A stretch of 64,000 nucleotides of DNA from Cyanophyceae cyanobacterium (GTDB taxonomy: Bacteria; Cyanobacteriota; Cyanobacteriia; Cyanobacteriales; JBHJGN01): contig JBHJGN010000044.1 in assembly GCA_050331735.1 (NCBI GenBank), positions 1 to 64,000 of the forward strand. Reading direction: 5' to 3'. Shown in pieces: positions 15,238 to 41,728 of the stretch. The notes beneath the pieces were generated by a model. It searched no databases. It was not told the DNA's origin and worked only from the letters and a program-made list of their open reading frames with translations. Made by a program: the position numbers and the translations under genes. Position 1 is the stretch's first letter; each line of letters starts with the position of its first letter.

Positions 15238-15254
15238 GTAGTGTGTTATTTGTG

Positions 15255-16034: not shown

Positions 16035-16043
16035 TAAAAGCGA

Positions 16044-17500: not shown

Positions 17501-17504
17501 AATT

Positions 17505-21983: not shown

Positions 21984-22041
21984 GGGTTTACCTCTTCTTG
22001 ATGTTGACAATGATGAAAAATGCCTTTGTTAAAGATGTCCT

Positions 22042-22992: not shown

Positions 22993-23010
22993 GTATCAAT
23001 ATAGATATGA

Positions 23011-23754
23011 TCAAGTTAGGTTGTTACGCAGTTTAACGACGCGAGCCGGAACCCCGACAGCGATCGCGCCGTCGGGAATGCTTTTAGTAACAACAGCGCC
23101 AGCTCCAATGGCCGCTCCCTTGCCGATGCGTACGCCTTCTAGGACAATGACGCCAAAACCCAACCAAACATCATCGCCAATCACAATGTCTCCTTTACTT
23201 GTGAGGGGTTGCGTCATAATGGGCTGATTGGGAGCAATGCCGTGATTGTAGGGATAGAACGCGCAGTTGGGCGCAATTTGTACCCGAGAACCAATTTTAA
23301 TGGCTGCTTTATAAGCTGAGAACTGACAGCGAGGCTGAATATGAGTATCTGAACCGATCTTCAGCATTCCGTGTTCTCCAGTCTGAATACAAATATCTCC
23401 GTAAAGATGGACACGGTCTTGTAGGTCAACCTCACCACCGTTTCTGTCCTGGAAAATTGTGACACGATCACCAATAAAAATATTCGCACCGAGCCGCAAA
23501 TTCTGATGATAGAGTGTTGCATTAGGAGCAATATAGCCTCGAGAATTATAACGAGCCAAGCGGCGGCGTTCGTAATACGGCGGAGCCAACCATGTCGCTA
23601 GCCAAGTTGCTATTTGTCCGGTATATCCTCTGCCAGCAAATTGCATCCAAAAAAGCATCCATGCAGTGGAAACAATTCCGCTTGTGCCAGTTAGCTGCCA
23701 AGTTTTACGAAACCGCAACCAAGAATATGAAGAGTTATCCTGTATTGATGCCAT
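23011..23754 (-). CDS. Left-handed beta-helix acyltransferase
   Basis: IGDDVWLGFGVIVLEGVRIG, AVGVPARV. Confidence 0.88.
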   Translation of the reverse strand: MASIQDNSSYSWLRFRKTWQLTGTSGIVSTAWMLFWMQFAGRGYTGQIATWLATWLAPPYYERRRLARYNSRGYIAPNATLYHQNLRLGANIFIGDRVTIFQDRNGGEVDLQDRVHLYGDICIQTGEHGMLKIGSDTHIQPRCQFSAYKAAIKIGSRVQIAPNCAFYPYNHGIAPNQPIMTQPLTSKGDIVIGDDVWLGFGVIVLEGVRIGKGAAIGAGAVVTKSIPDGAIAVGVPARVVKLRNNLT

Positions 23755-23830
23755 AACTATTTATGTACTCACAAAACCTCATTGGTGCTCTTAAAACGCC
23801 GTTTGCTACTTTATGCATCTCAAGAAAATG

Positions 23831-24349
23831 TTAAACTTGAACTTGAATTTGAGTCGAAAGCTCAGTATTACTATACTGACGGACTAAATGATCTACTAGT
23901 AAAGGTGCAGTGAACAGCTCCTTGCTAAAAGGAGTTGGACGGTGCTTGACGTAGTTGGCTAACTGCTCAAATTCGGTGCAGTAGCATACGCCGAATTTTT
24001 CTACGGCGCGAGCAAACAGCAGTTGATGGTCGTCAACGTGTTCTCCGTAACACTTTAATCGAGGTAGTAGAACAAAACTAGTTTTCATTTCTGCCAGTAA
24101 ACGCGTTGAGCCTTGTCCAGCATGGGAAATAATAAATGAAGCTTGTCGAATAGATTGTGTCATTTCACTATTGCTCAAGGAAACAACGCTAGTTAGTAAA
24201 GGATGGCTAAGATTATTGGCAAGAGTTGAACCATGCTGGAATAGAACTGGCTCATCAATAATCTTTTGATTAAGCAGTTTTTGTAGCCAGTCAACTGCTC
24301 GTTCAAAAGGAAATAAACTCGTTCCAAGGGTAACGACAATCATTAACAA
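23831..24349 (-). CDS. PssE/Alg13-like glycosyltransferase catalytic subunit (GT28 C-terminal)
   Basis: IVVTLGT, ISHAGQG, LPRLK..GEHVDDHQ. Confidence 0.88.
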   Translation of the reverse strand: MLMIVVTLGTSLFPFERAVDWLQKLLNQKIIDEPVLFQHGSTLANNLSHPLLTSVVSLSNSEMTQSIRQASFIISHAGQGSTRLLAEMKTSFVLLPRLKCYGEHVDDHQLLFARAVEKFGVCYCTEFEQLANYVKHRPTPFSKELFTAPLLVDHLVRQYSNTELSTQIQVQV

Positions 24350-24430
24350 ATACCTCTGTACTAATTGCTATAGAAAAAATATTTTTGGTAATGCTGTACT
24401 TAAAGCCAGAAGAATTCAAAAAGCCCATCG

Positions 24431-24949
24431 CTAAGAATGACCAACGATTTGTTGATTGTCACTATTTCCACTAGAGAACAGCAATTTTGCCCTTATTAAG
24501 CTGCAATCATCACTCGGCTTATCTGCTAGGTCGGCTATCGGACTCCAATCAGAGAAGAGATGTTCTTGTTCCTTCGACAAGTAACGGGAGTTGACCCGAT
24601 AGTGTTTTCTTCCTACTTCTAAATACCACTTTCCTACTTCTTTGTTGTTTTCTACTCCATAAAAGCTTTCTTTTATATAGTTGCAGTAGAGACATTGACT
24701 ATAAACCTGTAAGTTTTCAAGATTTTGTGTATTTGTTTCAGAAGCATCAACTTTCCAAAAAACTTTGTTCCAGTCTCGTGAACCACAACACGGACAGGCT
24801 TCTGGAAAAATCAATAAATATTCGTGAAGAGACTGAGGACCATCGTTGATGATTCTGCATATAGTTTTTTTTCTTTTGCTTTTGGTAAGTTTTTTGAAAA
24901 TGCCAAAAACTAGCAAAAGAAAAAGTAGCAATAAAACTGCAAAAGGCAT
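24431..24949 (-). CDS. Hypothetical membrane-anchored protein with CxxC...CxxC zinc-ribbon-like motif
   Basis: N-terminal TM, basic stretch, CPCCG...CLYC. Confidence 0.5.
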   Translation of the reverse strand: MPFAVLLLLFLLLVFGIFKKLTKSKRKKTICRIINDGPQSLHEYLLIFPEACPCCGSRDWNKVFWKVDASETNTQNLENLQVYSQCLYCNYIKESFYGVENNKEVGKWYLEVGRKHYRVNSRYLSKEQEHLFSDWSPIADLADKPSDDCSLIRAKLLFSSGNSDNQQIVGHS

Positions 24950-25059
24950 TATTGTTCTTTTCCTGATTCTGACTTATTAGTTGCCGGATAAATACTGCTA
25001 ATGGCTGCTTAGAAAGTAGGCAATTTCAATCCAGCCTAGTTTTCAGCATTGCTCCAGAT

Positions 25060-25512
25060 CTAGGCAACGATTCCTTTATATATAGCTTTTGGATAACGCT
25101 CGAGACACTCCGCCCATTGAACGTAAAATTCATCAACTACATAGTAAACTAGCTTGCCGCTTAGGCTTAAGCTTCTGGAACGAGAAATGCTTTCTACGTA
25201 GATTGTCTTAACACCATAAAGCTTACTTGCAAAAATGAAAGGAACAGCCAAACCAGCTCCGGTTGAAATGACTAGATCTGGCCTGCTTTTACGTAGAATA
25301 AATAAAGCTTTGACAAAATTGACCAAAGCTTTATCTAGCATTCTTGCTTCTTGGAGTAATACCCAATAGACTGTCTCACGATCTCTGATTAATTTACTAG
25401 TATCATACTTTCGATACGTTACCCATTCCCGATCGTGGTCCGACCAAAATCGCTTTAACCCCATCATTGTTGAAAAATGTCCGCCAGGGTTACAAATCAA
25501 TAACAATCTCAT
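25060..25512 (-). CDS. PssD/Alg14-like glycosyltransferase accessory subunit
   Basis: CNPGGH, PDLVISTGAGLAVP, YVESISR, FYVQW. Confidence 0.9.
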   Translation of the reverse strand: MRLLLICNPGGHFSTMMGLKRFWSDHDREWVTYRKYDTSKLIRDRETVYWVLLQEARMLDKALVNFVKALFILRKSRPDLVISTGAGLAVPFIFASKLYGVKTIYVESISRSRSLSLSGKLVYYVVDEFYVQWAECLERYPKAIYKGIVA

Positions 25513-25841
25513 CCTGAATCGTCCCGCTTTAATTTGCAAGCTTTTTGCTGAATCTTTGAAAAAAAAAACACCGGTTTAAACATAGAAAACACAGGAGGAA
25601 ACACGCTTATCTAGAACTTAAGACTGGTGGCAGCTCTAACGCTGTTTGCCAAAGTCAATTAACAAGGCACTACAAGGAGCTGCTAGGGGTTGCCAATGTT
25701 ACTGTGAAAACGTAAAAAAGCATTCCTAGGTCTCTGTGTTTTCTCCTATTATTCTTATGATTGCTAATTTCTACTGCTTATTGACGACTGACAGATGCTT
25801 AAAGCATTATTTGCCAATCGGAGTTAGCTTATGTTAAGCAG

Positions 25842-26762
25842 TTAATTAGTCTTGACGTTATGCTGTGGCGCTACGTCCTGATATTCTGCTTTAGCATTGC
25901 CAATCCGAATTTCGTCAATGTAAAGCGTACGCTTATTGATTGAAGATGTAGTGGAGTCGTCTTTCCAGCTTGGTTTATAAATACCAATTTTGAAATACGG
26001 ACCAATTAAATCATGAAAGGTATTAGGTCCGGTTCTATTCACGACGAGGTTACCATTTTTCCAAACTTTCAGTAAACCATCTGACTCGTGTGACCACTTA
26101 ACATAAAATACCCAATCTGTCCAAACACCTCTCTCATAGGCACCTAAATCGATACTTTCTGTATCGCCTGTTGATACACCAGGTTGAAAGAGACCACCCT
26201 GAGTTACTTTATTAGAGTCCCAGCGACGGTAAATTGACCAGTTTCCATTAGCAGTAATCAAAGCAAGAGGTGGAGTCCTCCAAGTTTCTTGTCGGTAAAA
26301 GTCAGGGACGGAATGCCATTGGGTGACAATTTCTAAGGAATCGTCAGCTATATAGTCGGCTGGTAAGAATATACTAAAGCCATACCAGCGCTCAGTCCCC
26401 ATTCCAAATAGTCCATACCTTTTTATTTCTGAGCGTACGCTGTTTTCAACAAGAGGGTCTTGGCGGTAGAGAGTCACTTTTGCTGCCTGTTCGCCACTGC
26501 GTACTAAAGATGATTCTAGTCTGAGGGAGTGCCGACAACATAAGTCTCTAGCCCATCCAGCAATATTGTTAGCTTCAAAATCTTCACTGAAGAGCAGCGA
26601 GCCGAACTTAAAAGAATCATTAATTTGGTGTTTTAACTTATCCCGATGAGGTACGATAGAGGTGGTAATCGTTGTTGCTATTAAGCCCAACGTCAGTAAA
26701 GCCACAAACTTTAGGAGAGTTTTGTTGAAATAAACTGGGAGAAGTTTCGATTTTTCCATCAT
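25842..26762 (-). CDS. Secreted/periplasmic polysaccharide lyase (jelly-roll, PL20-like)
   Basis: N-terminal TM/signal, RSE, WYGFSIFLP, QWH, YFKIGIYK, YIDEIRIG. Confidence 0.8.
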   Translation of the reverse strand: MMEKSKLLPVYFNKTLLKFVALLTLGLIATTITTSIVPHRDKLKHQINDSFKFGSLLFSEDFEANNIAGWARDLCCRHSLRLESSLVRSGEQAAKVTLYRQDPLVENSVRSEIKRYGLFGMGTERWYGFSIFLPADYIADDSLEIVTQWHSVPDFYRQETWRTPPLALITANGNWSIYRRWDSNKVTQGGLFQPGVSTGDTESIDLGAYERGVWTDWVFYVKWSHESDGLLKVWKNGNLVVNRTGPNTFHDLIGPYFKIGIYKPSWKDDSTTSSINKRTLYIDEIRIGNAKAEYQDVAPQHNVKTN

Positions 26763-26823
26763 AGTCGTAGAGCACTCATGGATAGTGCTGTTAAAAGAGT
26801 TTTTTGTCTCAAGATTTTACTGA

Positions 26824-27867
26824 TTATTTGCTAGCTACCTTCGTTCCTTCGTAAGAAGCAAAAAGCTGCCTGTAAGCTGGCTCTAGGTTGTCACTGTAGA
26901 AATTAATTCCTACTTGACGTACAATATTTAAAATATTGTCAATCTGACAATGATCTAATTTGTTTTTCCAGCCTGACAAAGGATTTATTCCACTTGCAAG
27001 ATTAGAGCTAGTTTCTGTTGAAGAACTCGGGATTTTCAGATGTTGATAAGCTTGTGCAGGAACAGGCTTACCTAAATACTGAAAGAGACGAGCTATTTCT
27101 TGTTCACCTTCTACGACTAATTTTTCGTAGGTTGTTAAGCACCAAGGATGAGGTTTTGGCTGATTGAGAGGCAGGTAGTTTTGCACAGCCCAAACAAATG
27201 CTAATCCTTCTTCCGGCGTTCTTAGCCTTTGCTGAACTTCTTTCAGGTGAGGATACTCCATAAAAAGAGTAGGACATTCCAACAACAGCCCTAACAGACT
27301 GCTGTCATGATCTTCCCAATGTTTCCAATCTAGGGTGTGTGCCCAAGACCAATGAGGACTCCTGAGTTGAGAAGCAACCACAGCACAAGGATGGCGAACC
27401 ATGAAAAGAGTTCGTAGAGGAAATTGCTTGAGTGTAGGATAAAGGCGGAGATTTAGACCAATAAACTTGACGATAAATCCTTTAAAATTAAGATATTGCT
27501 CAGGTTTAAAGTGAGACAACAATACTAAGCGAGCAGACAGATTAGCACCAGTAAAAATCTGTCGCAGATAAGCATTCTGTAGAGAATTGCTCTCTACGTT
27601 TTGTGGATAACTGCTGTAGGAAAAGTATTTGAGACAATCTGGATTGCGTTTTAAGTTGAGCGGCTCATAGAGAATTGGATATCCAGGTAGCGTACCAACA
27701 ATTTCCGCTAGCCATGTAGAACCGCCTCTTCCTGAGCTTGCTACGATCAAAGTGTTGTCAATATCATAGCAGCGAGCATTAATTCGTCCCCAGATTTGCA
27801 AAAACGGATTAGCAGCGGTTCTAATTGCTGCTCTTTTAAACCGTTCAGCTACCTGTGTGTTGTTCAT
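26824..27867 (-). CDS. Sulfotransferase
   Basis: SSGRGGSTWL 5'-PSB, VRHPCAVVAS 3'-PB, YEKLV. Confidence 0.85.
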   Translation of the reverse strand: MNNTQVAERFKRAAIRTAANPFLQIWGRINARCYDIDNTLIVASSGRGGSTWLAEIVGTLPGYPILYEPLNLKRNPDCLKYFSYSSYPQNVESNSLQNAYLRQIFTGANLSARLVLLSHFKPEQYLNFKGFIVKFIGLNLRLYPTLKQFPLRTLFMVRHPCAVVASQLRSPHWSWAHTLDWKHWEDHDSSLLGLLLECPTLFMEYPHLKEVQQRLRTPEEGLAFVWAVQNYLPLNQPKPHPWCLTTYEKLVVEGEQEIARLFQYLGKPVPAQAYQHLKIPSSSTETSSNLASGINPLSGWKNKLDHCQIDNILNIVRQVGINFYSDNLEPAYRQLFASYEGTKVASK

Positions 27868-27967
27868 TACTAAATTAGTATTTTTGAGATTGTTTAGACT
27901 TAATTACTTGATTTGATCGCATTTATGCAATCAAGCTGTGTTGATGGTCCTACCGAATAAAGCAACA

Positions 27968-28885
27968 TTAGCTTGATAGTGAAGATGAGTACCCTACTAA
28001 TTCTTTGTAGACTCTGTGAGTGATGCGGTTGTAGTATGAACGCATAGTGTAGTAAGGTTTAAGCCTACTAGTTTGGTTGGCTTTTTTCAACTCTTCGACT
28101 TCCTGAGCAAAGGAGCTTCCTTGTTGCTGAATCAATTCTCGAAAAAATGCCTGGGCATAACTGTAAAGTTGAATGTCTAAATCATTATATTCTTCTATTA
28201 AGAAGAGAGTTGATTGCGGAATATTACGGAGAGAAGGTCTTTGTTTAGAGACATTACTTCTATAATAGAGAGGAAGTTTCCAACCCAGTATTTTTCTAAG
28301 CAGTACTAAAGTTTCTTCAAACTCTGAAGATATCCCTACAACGCTAAAATGTTCTTTAAGGTTCCTTTTGGCTAGCTCTAGAGTTTGCGAAGTAAGAGAG
28401 TAATCTTTATCTAAATCATCTTCGCTTCTTGTAGAAGCTTGCATTTGAATCTGTAGCTTGATGCCAGAAAAATATTTTGTCATATCATTTTTAGTGAATG
28501 ACACTCTAGACTTAACAAAGTCTTCTAAGTCCACTTCTTTGGCAAATGATGGTCTAGTGCGACAAAGATAATAGTACATGGAAATAACACGCTCGACCGG
28601 ATGACGAAGCATGGTAATGTAGGTGAATTGCCTATCCAAAAATTCGTGCAGCCCAAAACCAAAATGAGCGTTAACAATCTTGATTTTGTTTCTATCGGTC
28701 GTTGAGAGGTTTTTAAGACTTTCTAATCGCTGGCGATGAGTAGAAGATGAACCGTAAGCCTCGTAGACGGCAAGAGGATTTGCTTGATACTGAATGATAT
28801 ACCTTAGGGTAGTTCCCGCCGCCTTTGGTATATGCATAAAGATCACTACTTTTTGCGCCTCTTTGCTTTTGATAAAATTGTTCAT
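27968..28885 (-). CDS. Sulfotransferase family 2
   Basis: FMHIPKAAGTT, LRHPVERVISMYYY, NDLDIQLY. Confidence 0.88.
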   Translation of the reverse strand: MNNFIKSKEAQKVVIFMHIPKAAGTTLRYIIQYQANPLAVYEAYGSSSTHRQRLESLKNLSTTDRNKIKIVNAHFGFGLHEFLDRQFTYITMLRHPVERVISMYYYLCRTRPSFAKEVDLEDFVKSRVSFTKNDMTKYFSGIKLQIQMQASTRSEDDLDKDYSLTSQTLELAKRNLKEHFSVVGISSEFEETLVLLRKILGWKLPLYYRSNVSKQRPSLRNIPQSTLFLIEEYNDLDIQLYSYAQAFFRELIQQQGSSFAQEVEELKKANQTSRLKPYYTMRSYYNRITHRVYKELVGYSSSLSS

Positions 28886-28927
28886 ACGATGTATCAGCCT
28901 GTAATCAATTGAAAAATGAATACGACA

Positions 28928-30370
28928 TCAGCCAATAGGAGAAAAGGAGTTTTTAATCAAAGACAACAACATTTTAGGAATACGACCACCAGAAAAAATG
29001 GCGATCAAAATGCTGTAGCCAACTAAAAGCAGCAAAGGCTGTAGATAAACGTGGCTAGTGGAAAATGGAGTCAGATAAACGACTGCGACCGTTGCAGTCA
29101 TAGCGCTTGTAGGGAGTAATATGGTTTTGAGAGTGCTAACTACCTTCCAGCCTAGCGTACGGCAGGTAACGATCCAGAAACAGGCGGTTGCTCCTAGCCC
29201 CATTACCAGAGCCACGGCAGTTGCCACTCCTTTAGGCCCTGCAAGCCAAGCTCCTAGTAAATAGGCTGGTACCGATACGGGAATCAGAATCCAATTGATC
29301 ATGGCGTTCACGCCGGGTTTATCAGAAGCATTCAAAAGTGTGCCTAGAATGTTCATGAACAGCCGAAAGTAAGCATAAACAATAATAATTTGAAACAGCC
29401 CTACTGCTTCTTCCCACTGAGCACCATAAACGGTCGGAATAATCCAGGGAGCGGCGATAAAGGCAATACCGTAAATGAGAGCAGAGAGGAGGGAATTAAG
29501 TTCTAGCGCCGTAGAAATATATTTTTTCTTCTCAGAGCTATTCTTCTGCGACAGTGCCGAGAAGTTAACAGACTGGCTACGCGACAGGACGAACTGCGGC
29601 AGCATCGCTAGCTGATAGGCAAGATTATATTGACCTAATGCTGCTGTTCCTACCAGCTTGCCAATAATAAAGTTGTCTGTGTTGTTGTTGGTGTACGTCG
29701 CTAAATTAGTTCCTAAAACGCCGCCGATGAAGCTTTTAACTTTCTGCACCACGGACCAGTCTGGGATGAGCTGGTAGGTAAAGCGATAACCGCTCCACGA
29801 CCGAATGATGAAAGCAGTACTGGCAGACGTTAGCAAAGTGCCAGCAACAAACGACCATACCTTAGCGCCGAGAAGGGCGCAAACCAAAGTGCCACCCAAT
29901 CCAAGAATAGTTGATATCGTCTCGCAGATAGTTAGCTCTCTAAATTTCATTTGCCGAATCATCACGGCATGGTGTGTACTAGCGCCAGCTTTAAACAGAA
30001 AAGTCAAACCGACACAAGCCGTCAGTGGCCAAAGAATCGGAGTTGTAAAAAACTTGGAGAGAAAAAAGCCAAGCAGAATCTGGAGAATAAAGAGGAGCAC
30101 CGAGACGTTAACACCGAGGCTATAAACTGTGTTCAGCAGTTTCTTGTCGCTTAAGCCTTTTTGAACCAGTACTTGAGCAATAGAAGATTCACTAAAGCGC
30201 TCTGATAGCTGAATTTGAATCTGGACCATTGCCCAGATGCCAAATTCTTCAGGGGTTAACAGGTGAGCAAGGACGATTTGAGCAATCAGCTTCGTCAAAC
30301 GGTTATTAATATAGCTCGCCGTTGTCCAAAAAACTCCCCGAGCAATTTTGGCTGTATTAATTTGAGACAC
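28928..30370 (-). CDS. Wzx/WzxC-type flippase
   Basis: LAHLLTPEEFG, DNFIIGKLVG, LGQYNLAYQL, multiple TMs. Confidence 0.9.
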   Translation of the reverse strand: MSQINTAKIARGVFWTTASYINNRLTKLIAQIVLAHLLTPEEFGIWAMVQIQIQLSERFSESSIAQVLVQKGLSDKKLLNTVYSLGVNVSVLLFILQILLGFFLSKFFTTPILWPLTACVGLTFLFKAGASTHHAVMIRQMKFRELTICETISTILGLGGTLVCALLGAKVWSFVAGTLLTSASTAFIIRSWSGYRFTYQLIPDWSVVQKVKSFIGGVLGTNLATYTNNNTDNFIIGKLVGTAALGQYNLAYQLAMLPQFVLSRSQSVNFSALSQKNSSEKKKYISTALELNSLLSALIYGIAFIAAPWIIPTVYGAQWEEAVGLFQIIIVYAYFRLFMNILGTLLNASDKPGVNAMINWILIPVSVPAYLLGAWLAGPKGVATAVALVMGLGATACFWIVTCRTLGWKVVSTLKTILLPTSAMTATVAVVYLTPFSTSHVYLQPLLLLVGYSILIAIFSGGRIPKMLLSLIKNSFSPIG

Positions 30371-30397
30371 AGATCAATGCAGAGTGGTTGTGAGTAA

Positions 30398-31567
30398 CTA
30401 CGTCAGCGAGTCGTAAATGGCTTCTAGCTTGGAAGTCTGCTTGCGGATGTCGAATTTTCGACAAACAAACTCTCGACCCTGTTGCCCTAGTTTCTCGGCA
30501 AGAGCGCGATCGCCTAATAAAAGATCGAGTCTGTCTGCCAGAGCCGTCGTGTCTTTCTCTGGGACTAGAAAACCGGTCTCTTGATCTAAGACCGCTTCTG
30601 GAATCCCGCCATGCCAGGTAGAAACCACTGGAACACCACAGGCGGAAGCTTCATTAAACACAATTCCTAAAGCTTCTGAGTCGCCATTTTTAGCCGTCTG
30701 ACTTGGTAGAGCAAAAACTTCTGCTCCCTGCATCAGCGTTCGGATTGTCTGATGAGATTGAGCTCCCAAAAACCGAACGCGCTCTTCAAGGCCAAAAGAT
30801 TTAGCTAAGGAGCGCAGATAGCGAGACATCGACCCAGACCCGACCTGCAGGAGAATGACCTCTTGATGCTTGGCCGCGATTTGTGCAAAGGCTTTCAGCA
30901 GCGTATCAATGCCTTTTTTCTGCGTATGTCTACCAACACAGAGAATGTATCTTTTCTCTTTTCGGGGTATGGGAGTAAACCGTTCTGTATCGACTCCAAT
31001 GTAGTGCTGAACCACTTTCTCGGGAGGATAGCCTTTTTCAAGTAGCTTAGAGCGCACAAACTGCGAGACAGCAATAAATGCTGAGGCATTTTCCTGCAAT
31101 TTCTCTTCATGAAACAGCAGTTGATAGTATAAAAACTTGCCCGTTCGCCAGACAGCTTGACGAGAAAGCGTAATATCAAACCCGTGAAAGGTGACAACCA
31201 GAGGAATCTTCAGTTTCTCTGCTAACGCCATCGCATACACGCCATCTGTGCCAAAGTGAGCATGAATCAAGCTGAGCTGACTCAAAATATCTCGATGACC
31301 GAACCAATGGGGAGAGCGGGTCAATAAGACCAAGGTTTGCTTCAAATCTAACCAGTCACTCTCGCTTAGAGAGACAGTAGAAAAGGGAATCTGTCTTTTT
31401 AGAGTATTGGCAATGATCGTCGGTTGATATCGCCTCATCTGCTGAGCCTGCTCTTGAATAAAGGCTTCTGAAATGAGCGGAAAAACTCGTCGATAAATGC
31501 CAACGGTTCTAGTACATTGAGTTTTTGAGAAGCGATTGCGTGTGCTGATTTTCAGTAAGTTGGTCAC
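30398..31567 (-). CDS. Glycosyltransferase family 4 (WcaL-like)
   Basis: IHAHFG, TFHGFD, VGRHTQKKG, DSEALGIVFNEASACGVPVV. Confidence 0.9.
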   Translation of the reverse strand: MTNLLKISTRNRFSKTQCTRTVGIYRRVFPLISEAFIQEQAQQMRRYQPTIIANTLKRQIPFSTVSLSESDWLDLKQTLVLLTRSPHWFGHRDILSQLSLIHAHFGTDGVYAMALAEKLKIPLVVTFHGFDITLSRQAVWRTGKFLYYQLLFHEEKLQENASAFIAVSQFVRSKLLEKGYPPEKVVQHYIGVDTERFTPIPRKEKRYILCVGRHTQKKGIDTLLKAFAQIAAKHQEVILLQVGSGSMSRYLRSLAKSFGLEERVRFLGAQSHQTIRTLMQGAEVFALPSQTAKNGDSEALGIVFNEASACGVPVVSTWHGGIPEAVLDQETGFLVPEKDTTALADRLDLLLGDRALAEKLGQQGREFVCRKFDIRKQTSKLEAIYDSLT

Positions 31568-32754
31568 CGTTCTGCTGATTTTAAGGTTAGGGGCAAGCTG
31601 ATCTCGTTTAATTCGGTCATGTCGATGATTTTTTTGGCATATTCTACCGGGCTACAGTGTGCCTCAACCCATCGTCTTCCCTGAGAGAGAAGCTGTGGAG
31701 TATGGGGATCTGACGCTACCCGAATAATTGTGTCAGCAACTGCGGTCGGATTTTCCGGATTGACAGTCCATTCGGGGGCAATATTGCGTAAGCTTTCACC
31801 AACGCCACCCGTCTCGCTCCCGACGACCGGAACTCCACAGGCGATCGCCTCAACAACTGTCAATCCAAACGGCTCTCGCGGAGCGAGAGTAACGAGAACA
31901 TCTGTGTAGTTGTAGTAGTCTTTGATAGTAAATGTCGGCGGCAATACCGTAAAGCGGTCTGCGATGCCATAAATTTCTGCCTGCTCTAGTAAAGCACGAG
32001 TCTGACACTTTTCGGGAGAAGTGTCCAATCCAATGACAACTCCGTGGTAGTGATGCCCTTTCGCTTTAAGCTGCGCCAGCACCGGAAATAAAGCGCGGAG
32101 GTTTTTATCGTTGACTCCACCAGGCTTACTAATGCGGGAGGCTGTGAGCATCACCCGCGCTCCAGAGTTCAAAATCGGCTGTAGCTCTGCTGGTGGCGGT
32201 CCCACCGGAAGACGAGGATTAAATCGTTCTTCTAGGTCTACAGCCGGATAAAGAATTCCGCAAACATGAGGAACGAGAGCGCGAATCCGACTGGCCGTGA
32301 ATTCTGAGTTGCAGATCGCTCGCGGAGACAGGCAAGTAAACGTTAGCTTTCTAACCAAATTACCAAGCAGATTGTAAGAACGAGCCTGGTCGTGAAAGCT
32401 ATAGTAAATCGGACGACCGCTGAGCCGGAGCTTAATGGCGGCAAAAGCGAGCGTCGATAGTGCCTGGCTATTGACACAATTTTCTAGCAGCAACGGCCAA
32501 TCTTTGGGCTGTTGACTGACCCAGGATAGCGACTGCTTGACGAACTGAGTCTGGTTAGAAGCGTTAATTGAATGCAGACTAAGACTGCCGACCTCGTGTT
32601 GCAAATATCTTTCGACCAGTGAACCAGCTCGTACCAAAAAGCAGAGCTGCTCGGAGGCCTGACAGCGATGAAATCCTTTGATTAGCATCGAAAAGGAAAC
32701 GATCATGCCCCCGAGGCTATCGCAGGTTCCGGGCAAAACTAAGAGCTTACGCAT
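31564..32754 (-). CDS. Glycosyltransferase family 4
   Basis: EPFGLTVVEAIACGVPVVGS. Confidence 0.88.
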   Translation of the reverse strand: MRKLLVLPGTCDSLGGMIVSFSMLIKGFHRCQASEQLCFLVRAGSLVERYLQHEVGSLSLHSINASNQTQFVKQSLSWVSQQPKDWPLLLENCVNSQALSTLAFAAIKLRLSGRPIYYSFHDQARSYNLLGNLVRKLTFTCLSPRAICNSEFTASRIRALVPHVCGILYPAVDLEERFNPRLPVGPPPAELQPILNSGARVMLTASRISKPGGVNDKNLRALFPVLAQLKAKGHHYHGVVIGLDTSPEKCQTRALLEQAEIYGIADRFTVLPPTFTIKDYYNYTDVLVTLAPREPFGLTVVEAIACGVPVVGSETGGVGESLRNIAPEWTVNPENPTAVADTIIRVASDPHTPQLLSQGRRWVEAHCSPVEYAKKIIDMTELNEISLPLTLKSAER

Positions 32755-34115
32755 ACAAGACTCCTTCTCTTCTGGGATCGTTGTGCGGGCTGACGACTGA
32801 CTAAGCTCAGCAAAACACAGAGTTGAATAGTACTAGACAGCTCTGCGACGGGAAAAATGAGGCTCCACAGCAGGAGAGAGAGGAAGCAGCTTAAAGGTCT
32901 GCCTGAACGAGATTTGTAGAGCCAAGAAAACAACCCTAGCCAATAAGCGAAAAACAGCCCAGTTCCAATCGTTCCTCTTTTATATAACAGGCCGAGGACA
33001 AAGCTATGAGTACCAAGTGACACTCTAGCCTGCTTCATATCAGTCCCGTAACTTCTGACCGAATCTCCTGTAGTTACATGACCAAAAATAGGTTTCTCGG
33101 GGATTTGCTCTAGAGTTTGAGTGTAAATTGCCATTCTTTCCCCAGTGGAATCAGCTCGGTACTCTCCAACTGTATTTGTCGTCTCTAGATAGTTGTCGTG
33201 CAGCTGAGCCGTAATGGGCGGAAAAGAGAGAGCAAGGAAAGAGACTATTGCAAGAAGGCCACAGAGACAAGCTCGCCCCCAAGCTTTAGCAATAGTAATG
33301 AGATACCGCACGAGCAAAACAATCGGCAACATGACCCAGACAGAGCGAGTAGCACTGACAATCACTAAAAGAATGCAGGCACTAAATAAAAGCTGCGACC
33401 AAAGGCGGTTTCTGATATCCAATGCCAGTAGACTCATGAATGCACAGTACTGGGCCATTTCTATCGGCCCAGGAAAGAACAGAGAGAATCGAGGTAAGCT
33501 GCCGAAAACTAGTTGATGATTAATGTAAGGAATTAAATGAGTAAAGCGACTAGCACCTTCTTCATAGGTTCTTGCTCCTCTCAAAATTCCCCAAAGCGTA
33601 TTAGGCGGACTGTAAACAGGTGTCCCGAGAAGCACAAAAACTAGCAGGCAGACTAGCATTTCTACTGCACTAACGGTACAAGCCCAAATCAGAACCACCG
33701 GCCTAACTCTAAAGTTATTACTCTGGATGTACCAAGTTAACGATGGATAGCAGAATCCTATCAGAGATTTCACAAGCGAAAGCGGGTCGAGCGAGTTCGT
33801 CGATGCCAGCTCATTGAATAGTCCGCCTAAGAACACGTATCCCGAGTAAGCAAACAGGGCAGCTGACAAGAAGTCTATTTTTTTGAGCCGGAACTTGCCA
33901 TAGCAGAGCATTTCATAGGCAATAATAGCTGCCATAGCTAGCGGGGTCCAGTATTGATACAGGCCGGAGACCCACCACAGCGGCAGCAGAACAATATTGG
34001 CACAAACGACCTGTTCTGGTCCTGTCAGCGCTTGCCAGTGAATCCAAATTCCAGAAAAAAGCCGCTCACTGTTTGCTTGTTGAGCTGAGGTTTTACGAAG
34101 AGTAAGTTGCGTCAT
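32739..34115 (-). CDS. Wzy polymerase / O-antigen ligase family protein
   Basis: ~10 TMs, SATRS, R...KPIFGH, HSF..GLLYKRGTIG. Confidence 0.8.
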   Translation of the reverse strand: MTQLTLRKTSAQQANSERLFSGIWIHWQALTGPEQVVCANIVLLPLWWVSGLYQYWTPLAMAAIIAYEMLCYGKFRLKKIDFLSAALFAYSGYVFLGGLFNELASTNSLDPLSLVKSLIGFCYPSLTWYIQSNNFRVRPVVLIWACTVSAVEMLVCLLVFVLLGTPVYSPPNTLWGILRGARTYEEGASRFTHLIPYINHQLVFGSLPRFSLFFPGPIEMAQYCAFMSLLALDIRNRLWSQLLFSACILLVIVSATRSVWVMLPIVLLVRYLITIAKAWGRACLCGLLAIVSFLALSFPPITAQLHDNYLETTNTVGEYRADSTGERMAIYTQTLEQIPEKPIFGHVTTGDSVRSYGTDMKQARVSLGTHSFVLGLLYKRGTIGTGLFFAYWLGLFSWLYKSRSGRPLSCFLSLLLWSLIFPVAELSSTIQLCVLLSLVSRQPAQRSQKRRSLVCVSS

Positions 34116-34132
34116 CGGTTGATTCCAAACTT

Positions 34133-36196
34133 TTAGGCTTCTGCTTCGAGGACTTCTTTGTGACCGTAGCGGTAGCCTTCAGTACGGGACTCAACGCCAT
34201 TAACTATTAGTCCTTTAACCTGAGCGCTATGACGCTGGAGCTGATCGAGGCTATCAATTACCGAGTAGCGATCGCTGGTTCCCGGTCGAACTACAAACAG
34301 GACGTTCTGCGCCGCTGCACTCATTAGAGGTGTTTCGCTCACTAGGCTGACTGGAGCGCTGTCTACCAACACATAGTCATAGCGTCCGGTTTGCTGAGCT
34401 GTGCTGAGTCGCTGATTGAATTTCTCGCGGGTAAATTCACAAATTCTGTCAGTCGGCATGATGAGCGCCGGCATCAAGTCTAAACCTGGGTAGACAGACA
34501 CCAAAGAAGTATTATCTTCTGGGTCTATTTTGGTATATCCTAAACGTCGGCTCATTTCTGCCTGCCTGAAATCGCCATCGACCACCAAAACGCGAAATCC
34601 GAGTTTGGCTAGAGCGATCGCAACTCCCAAGGTTACCGTTGTTTTTCCTTCACTAAAGGTGGCGCTTGTCACCATCAGGCGACGGTTTTCAAGCTGAAGA
34701 AAGCTTAAAGCGGAGGCCAGACGCTGAAACTCGGTTTCTGCCTCTGCATCTAGCTCCCAACGAAGATGGGGCTGTTTGAGTCGAGAAACTCGTCCTAGTA
34801 CTGGAAATTCTACCTGCTGCAGGTCTTTAGGACTGAGCAACGGCTTGCGAGATTCTAGGAAGAACAGGATGCTCATGCTGCCAAACGCGGCAGCGAGAAT
34901 CCCGCCAAGAATCACTAGCTTGCGATTTGGTTCAGTCGGTTCAGGATCCAAGGTAGGTCCATCGACAAGCTGAACATTTGGATAACTATCGAAGGTGTTG
35001 ATCTTCGACTGACTAACCTGCGCCGTAATTCCTTTGTAGATTCCTTCGGCAATGTCGTACTTGCGCTGTAGCTCTGTCAGTTGAGCTTTGTTTTTAGACA
35101 CAAAAGCTAGTTCAGACGATAGTTGCTCGACCCGATTTTGAATTTGGCTAGCTTGTTGCTGTAGACCTTGAGCCGTAATCTGAGTTCTGATTAAATCCGT
35201 GATCATGCCAATGCGGCTATCGGCACCGCTCCCGCCTAGGGTGGCGTCTACGCTGGTGACTGCCACTCCTGGAATCGCCTTGGCTACCTGCTGATTGAGC
35301 TGCTCTTGTAGCTCTTGACGCTCTAGCGACAGCGACTGAATCTTAGGATTTTCGTTAGTATACCGGCTACGAGCCTCTGCCAGAGCAATTTCTGTTTGTG
35401 ATAGTTGCTCTCGAACAGCTTGGTACTCGACATTTTCTGCGAGTCGCAGAGAATTCATTGCCTGCTGAGGAGTGATTTGGAGAAAGGCAGCAGCCATTTT
35501 AGCTTCTGTTTCATTGGCTTGAGCATCTGCTAAGATTTGGGCATGCCGAGTTTTAAGTTCATTAATCGACTCAATCAGCTCGCCAGTTTGGACATCAACA
35601 TTGACCAAGCCAGTTGACCGCTGAAACTCGTTTAATTGATTCTGAGCCTGCAGTAGGTTTTGATGAGATTGTTCGAGCTCTCCTTGAGCGAACTGCTCGC
35701 GAACACTAGCATCTTGCTGACGAAGTTCGTTCAAACGCTGCTGATAAGCATCGACCAGATTATTCAGGCGCTCGATAGCAAGTTCCGGACTAGAGCCTTC
35801 AGCGGAGAGGGAAATCATGGTGGTTTGCTCTTGAGGTTCTGCCGAAAATAAGCCGCGATAGCTGGATAATTTTGAATAATCTTCGTTTTCGGGGTCCACT
35901 TCTAAAACGCGTTCTAGGACACTATCGCTCGTAATAATTTCTGACTGGACAACCAGAGGATTAACCGCATTGGAGAAACCAATACTGCTATCTCTAATAC
36001 TTCCTAATGTCCCTAGATCGGCATTGAGATTACCTTCTTTCGCTGGCAGATTAAGCTGTGCCTCAGCTTCCCATACTGGCGGAGAAGATTTTTCTGCATA
36101 GACAGTAGCGGCATAAGCTGTAGCAGCTAAAACAACACAATTCAGTCCTAATAAAGGTTTCCAGTGTCTGCGAACAACAGAAAATGTATGATTCAT
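34133..36196 (-). CDS. wzc: Wzc/GumC polysaccharide co-polymerase with BY-kinase domain
   Basis: N-terminal TM, long coiled-coil, second TM, SATFSEGKTT Walker A, VVDGDFR, YVLVDSAP. Confidence 0.88.
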   Translation of the reverse strand: MNHTFSVVRRHWKPLLGLNCVVLAATAYAATVYAEKSSPPVWEAEAQLNLPAKEGNLNADLGTLGSIRDSSIGFSNAVNPLVVQSEIITSDSVLERVLEVDPENEDYSKLSSYRGLFSAEPQEQTTMISLSAEGSSPELAIERLNNLVDAYQQRLNELRQQDASVREQFAQGELEQSHQNLLQAQNQLNEFQRSTGLVNVDVQTGELIESINELKTRHAQILADAQANETEAKMAAAFLQITPQQAMNSLRLAENVEYQAVREQLSQTEIALAEARSRYTNENPKIQSLSLERQELQEQLNQQVAKAIPGVAVTSVDATLGGSGADSRIGMITDLIRTQITAQGLQQQASQIQNRVEQLSSELAFVSKNKAQLTELQRKYDIAEGIYKGITAQVSQSKINTFDSYPNVQLVDGPTLDPEPTEPNRKLVILGGILAAAFGSMSILFFLESRKPLLSPKDLQQVEFPVLGRVSRLKQPHLRWELDAEAETEFQRLASALSFLQLENRRLMVTSATFSEGKTTVTLGVAIALAKLGFRVLVVDGDFRQAEMSRRLGYTKIDPEDNTSLVSVYPGLDLMPALIMPTDRICEFTREKFNQRLSTAQQTGRYDYVLVDSAPVSLVSETPLMSAAAQNVLFVVRPGTSDRYSVIDSLDQLQRHSAQVKGLIVNGVESRTEGYRYGHKEVLEAEA

Positions 36197-36357
36197 AATA
36201 TTTAGCTATATCTTACTGACGATTAAGGTTTTAACGCTGTTGACCGATCATGCATCCTTGCAAACGGGTGCTGACCAAAATTGTCGGTGGCTTAGAGAGC
36301 TAATATTTCTAGCAAGAGAAAATCATCAACTCGGCAGCGGCTCATTTGTTCGACTAC

Positions 36358-37401
36358 TTACCTCTGAGGTAGAGTAGAAGGAAGTTTACTAATTTTTGTG
36401 AGCTTTAAGCGCAAGTAACCGCGAAGCCCTAAACGCAGAACCGCTTTTCCTTGAGCCGGAAACAGAGCGCAAATACCACGCCGTAGGAACCTTTCCAGCG
36501 TATTTTGCGGGCTATAGCCAATAGCAATACTTTCTTGTAGGGAAAGCCAAAGAATCCGCCACGCTTCAATCCAGGATGACTGTCCTTGCTGAAGAACGGA
36601 AAGACTACGATAATCAACATCCCGACGCAAATCAAATTGCTGATTCAGCCCAGCTTTCAAAGCCGCTTGGTTAATGTAGGCAGCGGTTACTTCACGCTGA
36701 TGAAGGAGATACTTAAGATCGTCGTTGCGAGCCTGCAAATTATTGCCGTGCATGCGGTAGAACATCAACGGTTCATCAATGCAGCCAACCTCCCCGTAGA
36801 AAGGAACAGTAGCAGCCAGATAAGTATCTGCGGCTTCTGAGCGCTGAGTTGGAATTGGCAATACTTTTTGAAGGGTTTGCCGGCGGTAGGCGAGTCCAGA
36901 AGTAATCGACCAGGCATACTTGCCCCACTGCAATAGCAGAGGACGAACGTCTCCTCGACTGTGGGCGAGATATCCCTGACCAATCGGCTTTCCTTCTCGA
37001 TTGACCGAGATTCTACCGTGGGAAATTTGTACCCATTGAGGATGTTCTTGAAAAGCCGCCACGACTTTAGCTAGTTTGTCTTTTCGAAAATAATCATCAG
37101 CATCCAAAAAACAAACAATTTCCCCGGATGAACGAGCAATGCCTAAATTAAATGCCGCTCCCTGGCCAGCGTTTGCTTGAAAAATAGCCGTCATCTTTCC
37201 GCGATAGGATTCAAGGATCTCTCGAGAGCGGTCGGTTGAACCATCATCGACGACTAACAGCTCAAAATTTTGATAAGTTTGTTGTAATACACTTTCAATC
37301 GCTTGTGATAAAAAACAACCATAGTTGTAATTAGCAATAACAACGCTGACGAAGGGATGCTCTTTGCTAGGAGAAGTGGTTTTCGATTGAAGCATTGTCA
37401 T
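36358..37401 (-). CDS. Glycosyltransferase family 2
   Basis: VSVVIANYNYG, VDDGSTD, FLDADD, YRMHGNN. Confidence 0.9.
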   Translation of the reverse strand: MTMLQSKTTSPSKEHPFVSVVIANYNYGCFLSQAIESVLQQTYQNFELLVVDDGSTDRSREILESYRGKMTAIFQANAGQGAAFNLGIARSSGEIVCFLDADDYFRKDKLAKVVAAFQEHPQWVQISHGRISVNREGKPIGQGYLAHSRGDVRPLLLQWGKYAWSITSGLAYRRQTLQKVLPIPTQRSEAADTYLAATVPFYGEVGCIDEPLMFYRMHGNNLQARNDDLKYLLHQREVTAAYINQAALKAGLNQQFDLRRDVDYRSLSVLQQGQSSWIEAWRILWLSLQESIAIGYSPQNTLERFLRRGICALFPAQGKAVLRLGLRGYLRLKLTKISKLPSTLPQR

Positions 37402-37529
37402 GACTGTCCCTCTAGAGCTTCTGACAAAAGTAATAACTGAGTCAAACTGTTTCTAATTGATGTAGTTTAGCGAGAAGATAGGAGCTCGCGGCTAGTCACA
37501 GTTATACAATCCTTGATGTTCGGACAACG

Positions 37530-37560
37530 AAAAAAACGAAGCTTTGTAAAAAGCTTCGCT
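37530..37560 (-). terminator. Strong intrinsic terminator/attenuator upstream of the main EPS operon
   Basis: Minus RNA GCGAAGCUUU-UUAC-AAAGCUUCG followed by U7. Confidence 0.8.
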
Positions 37561-37637
37561 TAGCCTACTATTGCACTTGCCCTATTTTTAACTAGCAAGG
37601 ATAACTAGAAAGCAATCGAGATGATAGAAACAGAAGA

Positions 37638-37704
37638 GTGAAATACATCCTTAATCTAAAACTGCTCAAGTGCACTCTTGGTGTCTTCTTAAACAAGCTT
37701 TCAG
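37638..37704 (-). ncRNA. Conserved structured leader element, copy 3
   Basis: UUGUUUAAG-AAGACACCAAGAGUGCA-CUUGAGCAG; box AUGUAUUUCAC at 37638-37648. Confidence 0.75.
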
Positions 37705-37771
37705 CAAATAGGCTGCTGCAACTCGGGGAATTTAGCCAGCTAGATTAAAGTTTTCTTGTTGTCTTTTCTGA

Positions 37772-37780
37772 AGTATAACA
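37772..37780 (-). promoter_or_regulatory. Putative extended -10 promoter (TGtTATACT)
   Basis: TGnTATACT ~70 nt upstream of the copy 3 stem. Confidence 0.5.
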
Positions 37781-37914
37781 TAACTTCTGAAATTTTTTGC
37801 AGGTTCTACAAAGAAAATTTCTATTTGCCTTAAACCAAACACTTTCTAGCGCAGCAGGAAGAAGCAGAAAAACGAATTTACCGGAATCCAGAGCAATTAC
37901 TGGACAATAGGTTA

Positions 37915-38613
37915 CTAAAAGGCGTTATGCTTACTAAGAAGTGTGAAGATTGTCTCTACAATTAAACTGATGTCGTAGAGCAAAGACCATTTTTCTTGAT
38001 AAGCTAAATCGAGCTGGATTACTTCATCAAAATCTTGAATGCGCGAGCGACCTTTAACTTGCCATTCGCCCGTCAAACCGGGTTTAACGTAGAGTCTTTG
38101 CCAGTGAGAAGGACAATATTGCTGAACTTCGTCAGGCGTTGGCGGTCGAGTTCCAACTAAGCTCATATCACCACACAGAACATTCCAAAACTGAGGAAAC
38201 TCGTCGAGACTAGTACGACGCAACCAGCGTCCTACTTTGGTTGTGCGTGGATCTTGTTTATTTTTGAACAGTGGACCACGGATTTGATTTTCAACTAGAT
38301 GCTTCATCTGTTCGGCATTAACAACCATTGAGCGGAATTTCCAAATTTTGAACGGTTTACCGTATAGACCAACGCGAGTTTGTCTAAAAAAGATTGGCCC
38401 CGGATTATCAATAAATATTAAAAACGAAACAGGAATTAACAGGATTAGCAAAGCCGTTAACCCCACCAAGGCACCACAAATATCAATAATTCTTTTCGCT
38501 CTACTACGGACAGAAGGATGGGTGGAAGTCAGGCTATTAAAAGCACTAGCCGTTCCGGTGGTGTACCGAATCATAATTTTATGAGGAGCAGGCATACTGT
38601 TTTCAGCAACCAA
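37915..38613 (-). CDS. Priming sugar transferase (Bac_transf, WcaJ/CpsE-like)
   Basis: KRIIDI, FKIWKFRSM, DPRTTKVG..LRRTSLDEFPQFWNVL, KPGLTG.WQV. Confidence 0.93.
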   Translation of the reverse strand: MVAENSMPAPHKIMIRYTTGTASAFNSLTSTHPSVRSRAKRIIDICGALVGLTALLILLIPVSFLIFIDNPGPIFFRQTRVGLYGKPFKIWKFRSMVVNAEQMKHLVENQIRGPLFKNKQDPRTTKVGRWLRRTSLDEFPQFWNVLCGDMSLVGTRPPTPDEVQQYCPSHWQRLYVKPGLTGEWQVKGRSRIQDFDEVIQLDLAYQEKWSLLYDISLIVETIFTLLSKHNAF

Positions 38614-40012: not shown

Positions 40013-40405
40013 TTAGGAAAGCCTAGCGCCACGACTCATACGATAGCTATACTCGCTAACCGAGGGATTTGGTCGGTCTGGGCTTACGTTGTTTGCCTGT
40101 TTCCAATGCCTGCTGTTGGCCAGAGTCGAATTTAAAGTGCCATCCTCTTGACGAGAAAGCAATAGCCATATCTTGCCGTGTTCACCACAGAAAAACTCTT
40201 CGATCCATTTACTCCGGTCTGTATACGTACCCTGACTCGCTATTAATTTAGCCTTTTTACTAGTGACTTGGCACATTTCCTGGATGGCAGCACTGTCTGT
40301 ATAGCACAAATGATGCCTTGGTCCATTGACTCTCCAGAGTCTTTCTTGGCAGTAGGGGCAAAAAAACTTTTGTGTTTTTTTTCTGCGGCTTCTTTTGTTT
40401 GGCAC
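40013..40405 (-). CDS. Small basic Cys/His (zinc-finger-like) protein with Arg/Lys-rich N-terminus
   Basis: MPNKRSRRKK-...CPYC...FFCGEHG; AAGGAG RBS ~10 nt before GTG start. Confidence 0.8.
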   Translation of the reverse strand: MPNKRSRRKKTQKFFCPYCQERLWRVNGPRHHLCYTDSAAIQEMCQVTSKKAKLIASQGTYTDRSKWIEEFFCGEHGKIWLLLSRQEDGTLNSTLANSRHWKQANNVSPDRPNPSVSEYSYRMSRGARLS

Positions 40406-41363
40406 AGCGTCTTGCTCCTTTAGGAAATAAAAATTCAGTTAACAAACCTTGTCTATTCGTAATACGACTGTCAGGATGCTTTCTGCATTCTTTGGTCGTA
40501 CAAACTTGACCAGAACACTGGAACAGGGAACTTTATAAAAAATTAAGTATTGCTCTCCATCGAGCGCCCCCAGAATAGGCAAAAAAATAAGATTTTTTGA
40601 GCATCTTCTATTGATGCATTTAAAACAAAAGCTTTAAAGAGTATTCGATTCTGACGTTGCTAAATCTGATACAACTGAGGACTTATTTGCTCAATACAAA
40701 ACATATCATAGGTAAACTTAAAACAAACACCAAATTTGAGTAAGTTTTGTAAAAATTTTGGTAAAAATTGTTATTGAGCCTGAAATCTCCTACAGGAAGG
40801 GAGATTAAGAGTAGAGCGAATAAGAGAATTAGCATCAAAAACTGAGGCCTCTTTACAAGAACTTTAAAAAAGTGGCGTTTTTTTAAGGGTAAGTAAACCA
40901 AATAAAAACTACCAGACTTAACTAATGTAATTCAAAATATGAAACATAGAAACAATGCCTACTTATAATGAAAGCAAAACAGAAAATGCATCTAAATGAT
41001 GCATTTTAAAAAATGGCAACGTCTTTGCTTATTGCGTTCAATACACTGCTCCTTTTGAAGATTATTGCTCAAGAGTTACTCTCCTGAGCAATAGCTTTGT
41101 CGGTTCAAAGACTCAGCGCTAGTTCTCTGTTACTCTAAGTACGCAGAAATAGAAATAGCACCAAGCTCTCGCGCATAAAGCTATTTTGCTTTATCGCACC
41201 AAAGAAGAGAGTAAAGTAACCGCAGAGCTAAATTGCTGGAGTAGCAATGGCTTGCTCCTAGCAAGCAGCCCGAAATTACTTTAGTAATAATTGCTTATTA
41301 CTTGATTGCAACACTCGAATGGACTGGTTTTAAACATCAAGGTGGCGCAGTATTACGAACTAG

Positions 41364-41392
41364 AAAACCGACTAGTACGAATACTAGTCGGT
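41364..41392 (-). terminator. Intrinsic terminator with UUCG loop in the long leader
   Basis: Minus RNA ACCGACUAGUA-UUCG-UACUAGUCGGU-UUUCU, perfect 11-bp stem. Confidence 0.75.
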
Positions 41393-41486: not shown

Positions 41487-41554
41487 GACAAATACATTGC
41501 CTTCATTCCAGAAACTAGCAAATGCACTCATGGATGTCTTTTTGCCTAGTTTTC
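41487..41554 (-). ncRNA. Conserved structured leader element, copy 4
   Basis: GGAAACUAGGCAAA-AAGACAUCCAUGAGUGCA-UUUGCUAGUUUCUGG; box AUGUAUUUGUC at 41487-41497. Confidence 0.75.
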
Positions 41555-41728
41555 CAGTGGAAGTCCACTGCTGACCTTCTTCAGGCGCTGCTTTCCCTAC
41601 AACATTGAGCTTCCTTGCCTATTGCTAAAGCCTTAAACTCTCCTCAAAATTGGAGTTTTATATCTCAGCTTTTTTAGCAGATACCAAAGGAAGTATGTGT
41701 AAAGCTTTTATTGTTGCTACTTATAAAA

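Follow-up and report, generated by a model that had tools for sequence, protein, structure and literature searches.

In phage lambda, the small, basic and largely unstructured N protein binds the boxB hairpin of nut RNA and brings about processive antitermination, and in phage Mu the small zinc-finger protein Com opens an mRNA hairpin and so activates translation. RfaH, acting at the ops (JUMPstart) element, which is read as DNA, and LoaP are paralogues of NusG; they switch on long operons for polysaccharides or polyketides. The EAR/epsC RNA (RF01735) of the Bacillales is an antitermination RNA within the eps operon, according to PMC2864571. Here we analyse a 64,000-nt stretch from a Cyanophyceae cyanobacterium (contig JBHJGN010000044.1, positions 1 to 64,000 of the forward strand; hereafter the window), in which a gene at 40013..40405 on the minus strand encodes a basic protein of 130 aa and a leader hairpin of ~50 nt occurs four times. 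An initial annotation of this DNA had proposed the protein as a trans-acting antiterminator for the leader element. In comparisons across genomes, the co-occurrence of protein and hairpin and their frequent adjacency make a functional link between the two well supported; they probably form a new gene-control pair, and possibly one that lets transcription pass stop signals.

By analogy, the layout of the locus resembles lambda N/boxB, and its biological role would resemble that of RfaH, LoaP and EAR. As in the lambda system, the protein is small and strongly basic, starts with an arginine-rich stretch and is found with a short conserved hairpin 5′ of terminators, several sites lie along long transcription units, and the regulator gene stands behind one of these sites. 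Unlike N, however, the 130-aa protein is predicted to have a folded beta-rich core with a probable zinc site; the apex of the hairpin spans 17-19 nt, encloses a 3-bp helix and is not a GNRA-like pentaloop as in boxB; and the system is a cellular one tied to polysaccharide clusters. Searches of Pfam, NCBIfam and PDB at E<=0.1 to 10 (PHROGs not searched) gave no match to a known N family, Pfam and NCBIfam yielding no family at all beyond two zinc-motif matches below threshold, to CoiA_N (17.3 bits, cut-off 26.3) and Zn_SUZ12, and the PDB profile search no match below E 0.1; none of the ANTAR, CAT/BglG, PyrR, HutP or TRAP domains was among the Pfam matches at E<=0.1. With RfaH and LoaP the locus shares a dedicated regulator and a leader element heading long polysaccharide operons, along with the suppression of termination proposed here, while differing in that the protein has no NusG (NGN) match in Pfam and the element is a covarying RNA hairpin. 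Com is likewise a small cysteine-based zinc protein, and the protein described here may similarly recognise a hairpin 5′ of its target gene; in contrast with Com, it has no sequence match in Pfam or PDB, and its targets often precede a terminator and show no constant spacing to start codons. Like EAR, the hairpin is an RNA element inside exopolysaccharide operons (with antitermination for EAR, and proposed here); unlike EAR, it is a single short hairpin present in several copies per cluster, with a co-occurring candidate protein partner. Rfam gave no match at gathering thresholds over the whole window and none at E<=5 over 40300-42000, which includes the fourth hairpin copy, and the covariance models of JUMPstart (RF01707), epsC/EAR (RF01735) and wcaG (RF01761) matched neither hairpin nor leader. 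To our knowledge, EAR itself has no dedicated protein partner. Literature searches, supplements aside, and PMC2864571 gave no description of the protein or the hairpin, and a search for public RNA runs listed none.

The elements of the pair in the window are:

40013..40405, minus strand: gene of the basic protein, a probable zinc ribbon; 130 aa, GTG start (open reading frame, homologues, conservation, AlphaFold2 model)
40415..40419, minus strand: Shine-Dalgarno-like AGGAG, 9 nt 5′ of the GTG start
Protein parts: Arg/Lys-rich residues 1-13; CPYC at 16-19; CGEH at 73-76; C-terminal tail PNPSVSEYSYRMSR at 112-125
454..506, minus strand: leader hairpin copy 1, 48.1 bits, near the contig end
6389..6442, minus strand: leader hairpin copy 2, 51.9 bits, 5′ of DAO-type oxidoreductase and sugar-nucleotide genes
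37654..37707, minus strand: leader hairpin copy 3, 58.2 bits, between a Bac_transf gene and GT2/Wzc/Wzy genes
41506..41560, minus strand: leader hairpin copy 4, 46.2 bits, variable stem and apical AAGACAUCCAUGAGUGCA, ~1.1 kb 5′ of the protein gene

A covariance model (R1) built from 11 hairpins and a profile of the protein were searched against one sample of 151 genomes of the order, an intact protein of the close subfamily, i.e., the one including the 40013..40405 gene, being called at E<=1e-50 and a hairpin at E<=1e-3. Hairpins were found in 12 of the 14 genomes with an intact close-subfamily protein (all except G464 and G448) and in none of the 137 genomes lacking one, which include 28 with the distant subfamily only and one, G101, with a broken copy; every hairpin-positive genome of the order sample (12/12) therefore encodes the protein. 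In G448, a laxer search gives a weak hairpin (E 0.06) 320 nt 5′ of the gene on the same strand. A sample of the phylum (151 genomes) showed hairpins only in G000, the genome of the window, and in G011, G023, G074 and G122, all of them carriers of the protein, and among five further carriers the hairpin is present at E<=1e-4 in G218, G392 and G196, as two weak matches (E 0.0016) in G280, and is absent from G170. The same pattern is seen within genera: in genus g8, G023 and G122 have both partners and G113 and G146 have the distant subfamily only and no hairpin, and in genus g17, both occur in G074, G477 and G489, the protein alone in G464, and neither close protein nor hairpin in G128 and G200. 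The association of protein and RNA element that the initial annotation had put forward as a check was thus strongly positive for the close subfamily.

The two partners are also frequently neighbours. A hairpin lies on the same strand within 2.5 kb of the gene in 10 of the 19 genomes with an intact close-subfamily gene (G000, G011, G023, G074, G288, G455, G468, G481, G489 and, by its weak match, G448), either 5′ of the gene or immediately downstream of it. In G218 it is found 4.2 kb downstream of the gene, in G392 it is on the opposite strand at a distance of 285 nt and precedes a Bac_transf gene, and in G122, G422, G477, G196 and G280 gene and hairpin are on separate contigs. Hairpins unlinked to the gene (C29 in the genome of the window, G468:C25, G218:C172, G122:C82 and G196:C56) stand mostly 5′ of glycosyltransferase or esterase genes, and such hairpins in carrier genomes would fit action in trans. 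In G074, G011, G023 and G218 the gene heads same-strand polysaccharide clusters of differing type, with GT1/GT2 glycosyltransferases, Wzc, Wzy, Bac_transf, ABC transporters, exosortase and NeuB among their members, and the context in G288:C98 and G101 is like that of polysaccharide-cluster heads. The first same-strand open reading frame after 28 hairpins outside the window encodes a glycosyltransferase in 13 cases, the protein itself in 6 and another product in 9 (GDSL and BD-FAE esterases, a DAHP/NeuB-like synthase, secreted repeat proteins, DUF29, a Uma2 fragment and two unknowns), its start lying 11 to ~640 nt from the hairpin. The window itself contains one such cluster downstream of the protein gene:

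709..38613, minus strand throughout: polysaccharide cluster of ~38 kb with Bac_transf, GT2, Wzc-like, Wzy, GT1s, two flippases, a sulfotransferase, a polysaccharide lyase, acyltransferases and sugar-nucleotide enzymes

The open reading frame at 40013..40405 is a genuine gene and not a chance one, since 52 of 54 candidates retrieved from a collection of 5.8 billion proteins are homologous at E<=1e-3. These homologues share 43-59% identity over almost the whole length, are each unnamed or ‘hypothetical’, and belong, where the host is named, to cyanobacteria (Halothece, Pleurocapsa, Crocosphaera, Gloeobacter), the exception being one metagenome-assembled genome labelled Chloroflexaceae; the GTG start is supported because homologues begin with ATG at the aligned MPNKRS. 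All the sequence features listed by the initial annotation, i.e., the 130-aa frame, the ribosome-binding site and the motifs KRSRRKK (residues 4-10), CPYC, CGEH and SEYSYRMSR (residues 117-125), were found in the sequence. The protein has a predicted isoelectric point of 9.88, with lysine or arginine at 7 of its first 13 residues, a conserved C-terminal tail (NPSVSEYSYRMSR) and, as judged by eye, no signal peptide or membrane segment.

A protein-profile search of whole genomes identified the family in 69 of 401 genomes spread over the phylum, in three groups: the close subfamily (E<=1e-47), a Nostoc-type of ~141 aa and a picocyanobacterial group. It is a small family, because an exhaustive search of 1.84 billion representatives gave just 184 clusters at E<=1e-3; a Nostoc-type query gave 912 clusters, all names given being ‘hypothetical’ or ‘uncharacterized’, and matches in the ESM Atlas were unnamed cyanobacterial clusters only. 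In an alignment of 61 sequences, the residues C16, W67, E69, C73, W80, W101 and P109 do not vary. At position 19 the close subfamily has Cys, and the Nostoc and picocyanobacterial types have His; at position 76 the close subfamily has His or Asp, and the other types have Cys. Four metal-ligand positions are thus kept, laid out as two CxxC/H knuckles, as would be expected of a zinc site. The C-terminal motif is almost invariant across subfamilies (N113, P114, V116, E118, R125), and the N-terminus is basic in all groups with a sequence that differs from group to group. Residue conservation hence favours both the zinc-site and the arginine-rich readings of the initial annotation.

The AlphaFold2 model has a mean predicted local distance difference test score of 80.2, with a confident, beta-rich core (residues 11-105, ~88-91) and a low-confidence N-terminal arm and C-terminal tail; C73 and H76 are placed at the turn joining strands 61-73 and 77-85. 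With this model, Foldseek retrieved no PDB entry at E<=1e-3. The highest Z that VIA-align returned among 48,161 chains was 4.8, for unrelated folds, and the sole zinc-ribbon match was a weak one to NrdR (Z 3.4 over 43 residues). The modelled protein fits no clear known fold, a best Z of 4.8 being no basis for claiming a novel one. Three truncated paralogues (100, 93 and 77 aa; contigs C19, C54 and C53) are also present in the genome of the window:

G000:C19:147655-147927, minus strand: truncated paralogue
G000:C54:3868-4128, plus strand: truncated paralogue
G000:C53:27339-27554, plus strand: truncated paralogue

All three keep the basic arm and the Cys ligands and lack the C-terminal tail, and no polysaccharide-type neighbours were seen by eye (the neighbours not having been scanned against Pfam); they may be decaying copies or natural competitors. 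One of them adjoins a transposase-type open reading frame (by eye), and comparable short copies occur in G011, G468 and G481.

The stem of the hairpin is variable, and its apical part, AAGACAYC-(N2-4)-GAGUGCA, is fixed. Its four copies in the window are all on the minus strand, i.e., the gene strand, and the genome has one further strong hairpin (C29) and one weak (C6) outside the window. On 30 distinct hairpins, paired cells reach 91.6% as against 12-49% in slid controls, in an alignment that was fitted to the covariance model and is therefore biased towards structure, and compensatory changes occur at 8 of 10 pairs across these copies, which come from many genomes; by these comparative measures the hairpin is a covarying RNA structure. 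Conservation is limited to the hairpin, the flanks of copies 1 and 3 not being conserved. A REP/RAYT-like mobile repeat was considered and is ruled out by the copy number (1-6 per genome), the gene-strand orientation and the location in polysaccharide loci, and is also disfavoured by the lack of an obvious nuclease motif in the protein (by eye).

Terminator-like structures follow many of the hairpins, and those of the window are:

326..358, minus strand: terminator-like hairpin and U-run, ~121 nt after copy 1, -19.7 kcal/mol (coordinates derived from the offset)
6288..6320, minus strand: terminator-like hairpin and U-run, ~93 nt after copy 2, -15.6 kcal/mol (coordinates derived from the offset)
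37534..37561, minus strand: intrinsic-terminator-like hairpin, ~120 nt after copy 3
41367..41392, minus strand: intrinsic-terminator-like hairpin and U-run, ~138 nt after copy 4, -20.2 kcal/mol
40983..41007, minus strand: second, weaker terminator-like hairpin, between copy 4 and the protein gene

With a simple scanner, a strong terminator was defined as a hairpin with a U-run, at -12 kcal/mol or below, within 320 nt. Such structures were found after 15 of 32 distinct hairpins (one duplicate row removed) vs 57 of 400 control windows taken at random upstream of genes in the genome of the window, an enrichment of ~3-fold, and all five strong hairpin copies of that genome have one 93-138 nt downstream. 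In copy 1 alone (326-506, minus strand), the minimum free energy fold pairs apical AGACACCAA with complementary UUGGUGUCU just past the terminator U-run, a pairing seen in no other leader copy. The initial annotation had noted that no NusG/RfaH paralogue is encoded in the window, and this extends to the whole genome (99.98% complete), which gives a single NusG match (PF02357, contig C4); the Rho RNA-binding domain has no match in it, and a Synechococcus control likewise gave no Rho match and no NusG paralogue.

Nostoc-type genes likewise belong to polysaccharide clusters, where they are preceded by GT1 and have ABC-2, epimerase, Wza or Wzy genes in their vicinity, and the leader RNA associated with this subfamily differs from that of the close one. 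The Nostoc-type 5′ untranslated region, ~100 nt and strongly conserved, contains a hairpin (GGAG..GGGCU..GGUC-UUUUU-GAUC..AGUCCCUCC in L023-L034) followed by CCUUC, which pairs with the Shine-Dalgarno sequence. It has no Rfam match, and a model of it (R2) places it directly 5′ of the gene in 5 of 5 genomes. Extra same-strand R2 copies lie a few kb downstream in G390 (C1:1075176-1083606) and G086 (C1:4908622-4915072), and look like partial duplications because remnants of the 5′ end of the gene follow them, with GTG changed to GTA. No common leader was found upstream of six picocyanobacterial relatives, for which start codons are uncertain.

Taken together, the likeliest reading of these data is a dedicated trans-acting partner of the polysaccharide-cluster leader hairpin that acts through hairpin-dependent read-through of terminators. 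On the nascent leader RNA, the conserved apex of the hairpin (AAGACAYC-N-GAGUGCA) would be bound by the basic N-terminal arm and the zinc-ribbon core, the C-terminal peptide common to the whole family, NPSVSE[F/Y]xYRxSR, would contact the transcription machinery, and RNA polymerase would then pass the intrinsic terminators found after many hairpins, so that a long polysaccharide operon and, in the genome of the window, the gene of the regulator itself would be turned on. Because the argument infers that the protein binds zinc, that it binds RNA directly, that regulation is towards read-through and that RNA polymerase is contacted, we hold this reading tentatively, at slightly short of even chances. 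More speculative, and in our judgement doubtful, is its extension to an unrecognised class of cellular RNA-tethered processive antiterminators for cyanobacterial polysaccharide operons, of modular build, in which a subfamily-specific arm and the zinc ribbon would read a subfamily-specific hairpin, the tail would attach to RNA polymerase or to a Nus factor, and tail-less paralogues would compete.

Several observations weigh against read-through. G170, with two intact copies, and G464 encode the protein without a hairpin even at E<=0.1, and the co-occurrence counts overstate independence because the genomes are related. The link to exopolysaccharide clusters expected by the initial annotation is seen in the frequent same-strand adjacency at cluster heads and fails for several copies outside polysaccharide loci (both copies in G170, and those in G280, G196, G122:C76 and G288:C174); this, along with the two hairpin-less carriers, is in part what that annotation had named as grounds for refutation. 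In the window, leader copy 4 is present as had been claimed, and the protein gene is indeed the first convincing gene after it, no larger convincing one lying in between. However, the intervening ~1.1 kb (40406-41500, minus strand) is AT-rich, lacks a convincing open reading frame and holds two terminator-like hairpins, and an alignment with four relatives shows nothing kept in the spacer between copy 4 and the gene except the hairpin; the gap, the two terminator-like hairpins and the unconserved spacer mean that the gene may be driven by its own promoter. The minimum free energy folds of five leaders show hairpin and terminator as independent and contain no competing antiterminator helix; read-through would hence depend on a postulated contact with the polymerase. 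The model fold matches no known RNA-binding protein in Foldseek or VIA-align.

The protein might instead bind the hairpin RNA without antitermination, and regulate translation, act in mRNA stability or processing, or promote termination (negative feedback). This reading, which we consider unlikely overall, is kept alive by three observations: in G489 and G074, hairpins end 11-20 nt 5′ of the start codon of a glycosyltransferase gene and no terminator intervenes, 17 of the 32 hairpins, about half, have no strong terminator-like hairpin, and the CCUUC of the Nostoc-type untranslated region, by pairing with the Shine-Dalgarno sequence, hints at translational control in that branch. Nevertheless, a fixed translational operator is unlikely given the spread of hairpin-to-start distances, and both the enrichment of terminators after hairpins and their presence after every strong copy in the genome of the window count against this reading. 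Alternatively, the protein could serve polysaccharide clusters without binding the hairpin, as a DNA-binding factor on a conserved 17-bp box, an RNA-polymerase-binding factor or an accessory to synthesis, some other factor reading the hairpin. Zinc ribbons with basic tails bind DNA too, the weak structural match is to the zinc ribbon of NrdR, and Nostoc-type relatives sit within operons, between GT1 and ABC-2 transporter genes, like a pathway component; yet the stems covary, the apical sequence is fixed and the orientation is nearly always that of the gene strand, all pointing to an RNA and not to a duplex operator, the protein is strongly basic (isoelectric point 9.9) with no secretion or membrane signal by eye, and hairpin presence tracks the protein even when the two are unlinked, so that such a role appears improbable. 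Finally, co-occurrence could reflect common descent or joint horizontal transfer of a cluster head with no functional interaction, as carriers are often related and families f5, f7, f9 and f12 share the synteny hairpin, gene, hairpin, GT2, Wzc, Wzy (G011, G455, G468, G481 and the window). Against this, the clusters behind the pair differ (Wzy/Wzc, ABC, NeuB and exosortase types), hairpins without linkage to the gene are also present in carrier genomes, the hairpin is confined to protein-bearing genomes within g8 and g17, and the Nostoc-type subfamily has its own leader RNA of other sequence directly 5′ of the gene, which leaves mere co-inheritance very improbable; both it and a role without RNA binding are less likely than the two readings in which the protein binds the hairpin.

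Other genes of the window lie outside this argument. Between the zinc-protein gene and the Bac_transf gene, 38725-39774 (minus strand) holds a 349-aa open reading frame with a weak DUF5677 match, which is probably not part of the regulatory module because its G011 counterpart is on the opposite strand. On the other side of the locus, a 296-aa acidic Ser/Asn/Gly-rich frame with internal repeats (276-nt spacing) and no Pfam match lies at 42961-43851 (minus strand), and one with a strong match to DndE of DNA sulphur modification (E 8.7e-45) at 44263-44655 (minus strand). At 44725-47777 (minus strand), a histidine kinase gene with a cyclic-nucleotide (cNMP)-binding domain lies directly 3′ of a response-regulator gene with a 4-nt overlap, the regulator being a receiver fused to a pyridine-nucleotide-disulphide oxidoreductase, an unusual two-component output domain.

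Cyanobacterial extracellular polysaccharides shape mats, crusts, blooms and biotechnology strains, and the control of the very long clusters that encode their synthesis is poorly understood. At the present locus, a leader RNA of polysaccharide operons is joined by a candidate trans-acting factor dedicated to them, and neither the protein nor the RNA matches a curated family in Pfam, NCBIfam or Rfam. The two make a testable pair, a 130-aa protein and a ~50-nt hairpin, with a clear comparative-genomic signature. If the protein is an RNA-hairpin-dependent antiterminator, the pair would be a cellular counterpart of phage N/boxB and a functional substitute for RfaH or LoaP in a genome without a Rho match or a NusG paralogue. 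If it acts on translation or mRNA stability, it would represent a new cyanobacteria-specific family of RNA-binding regulators and a possible handle by which to engineer polysaccharide output.
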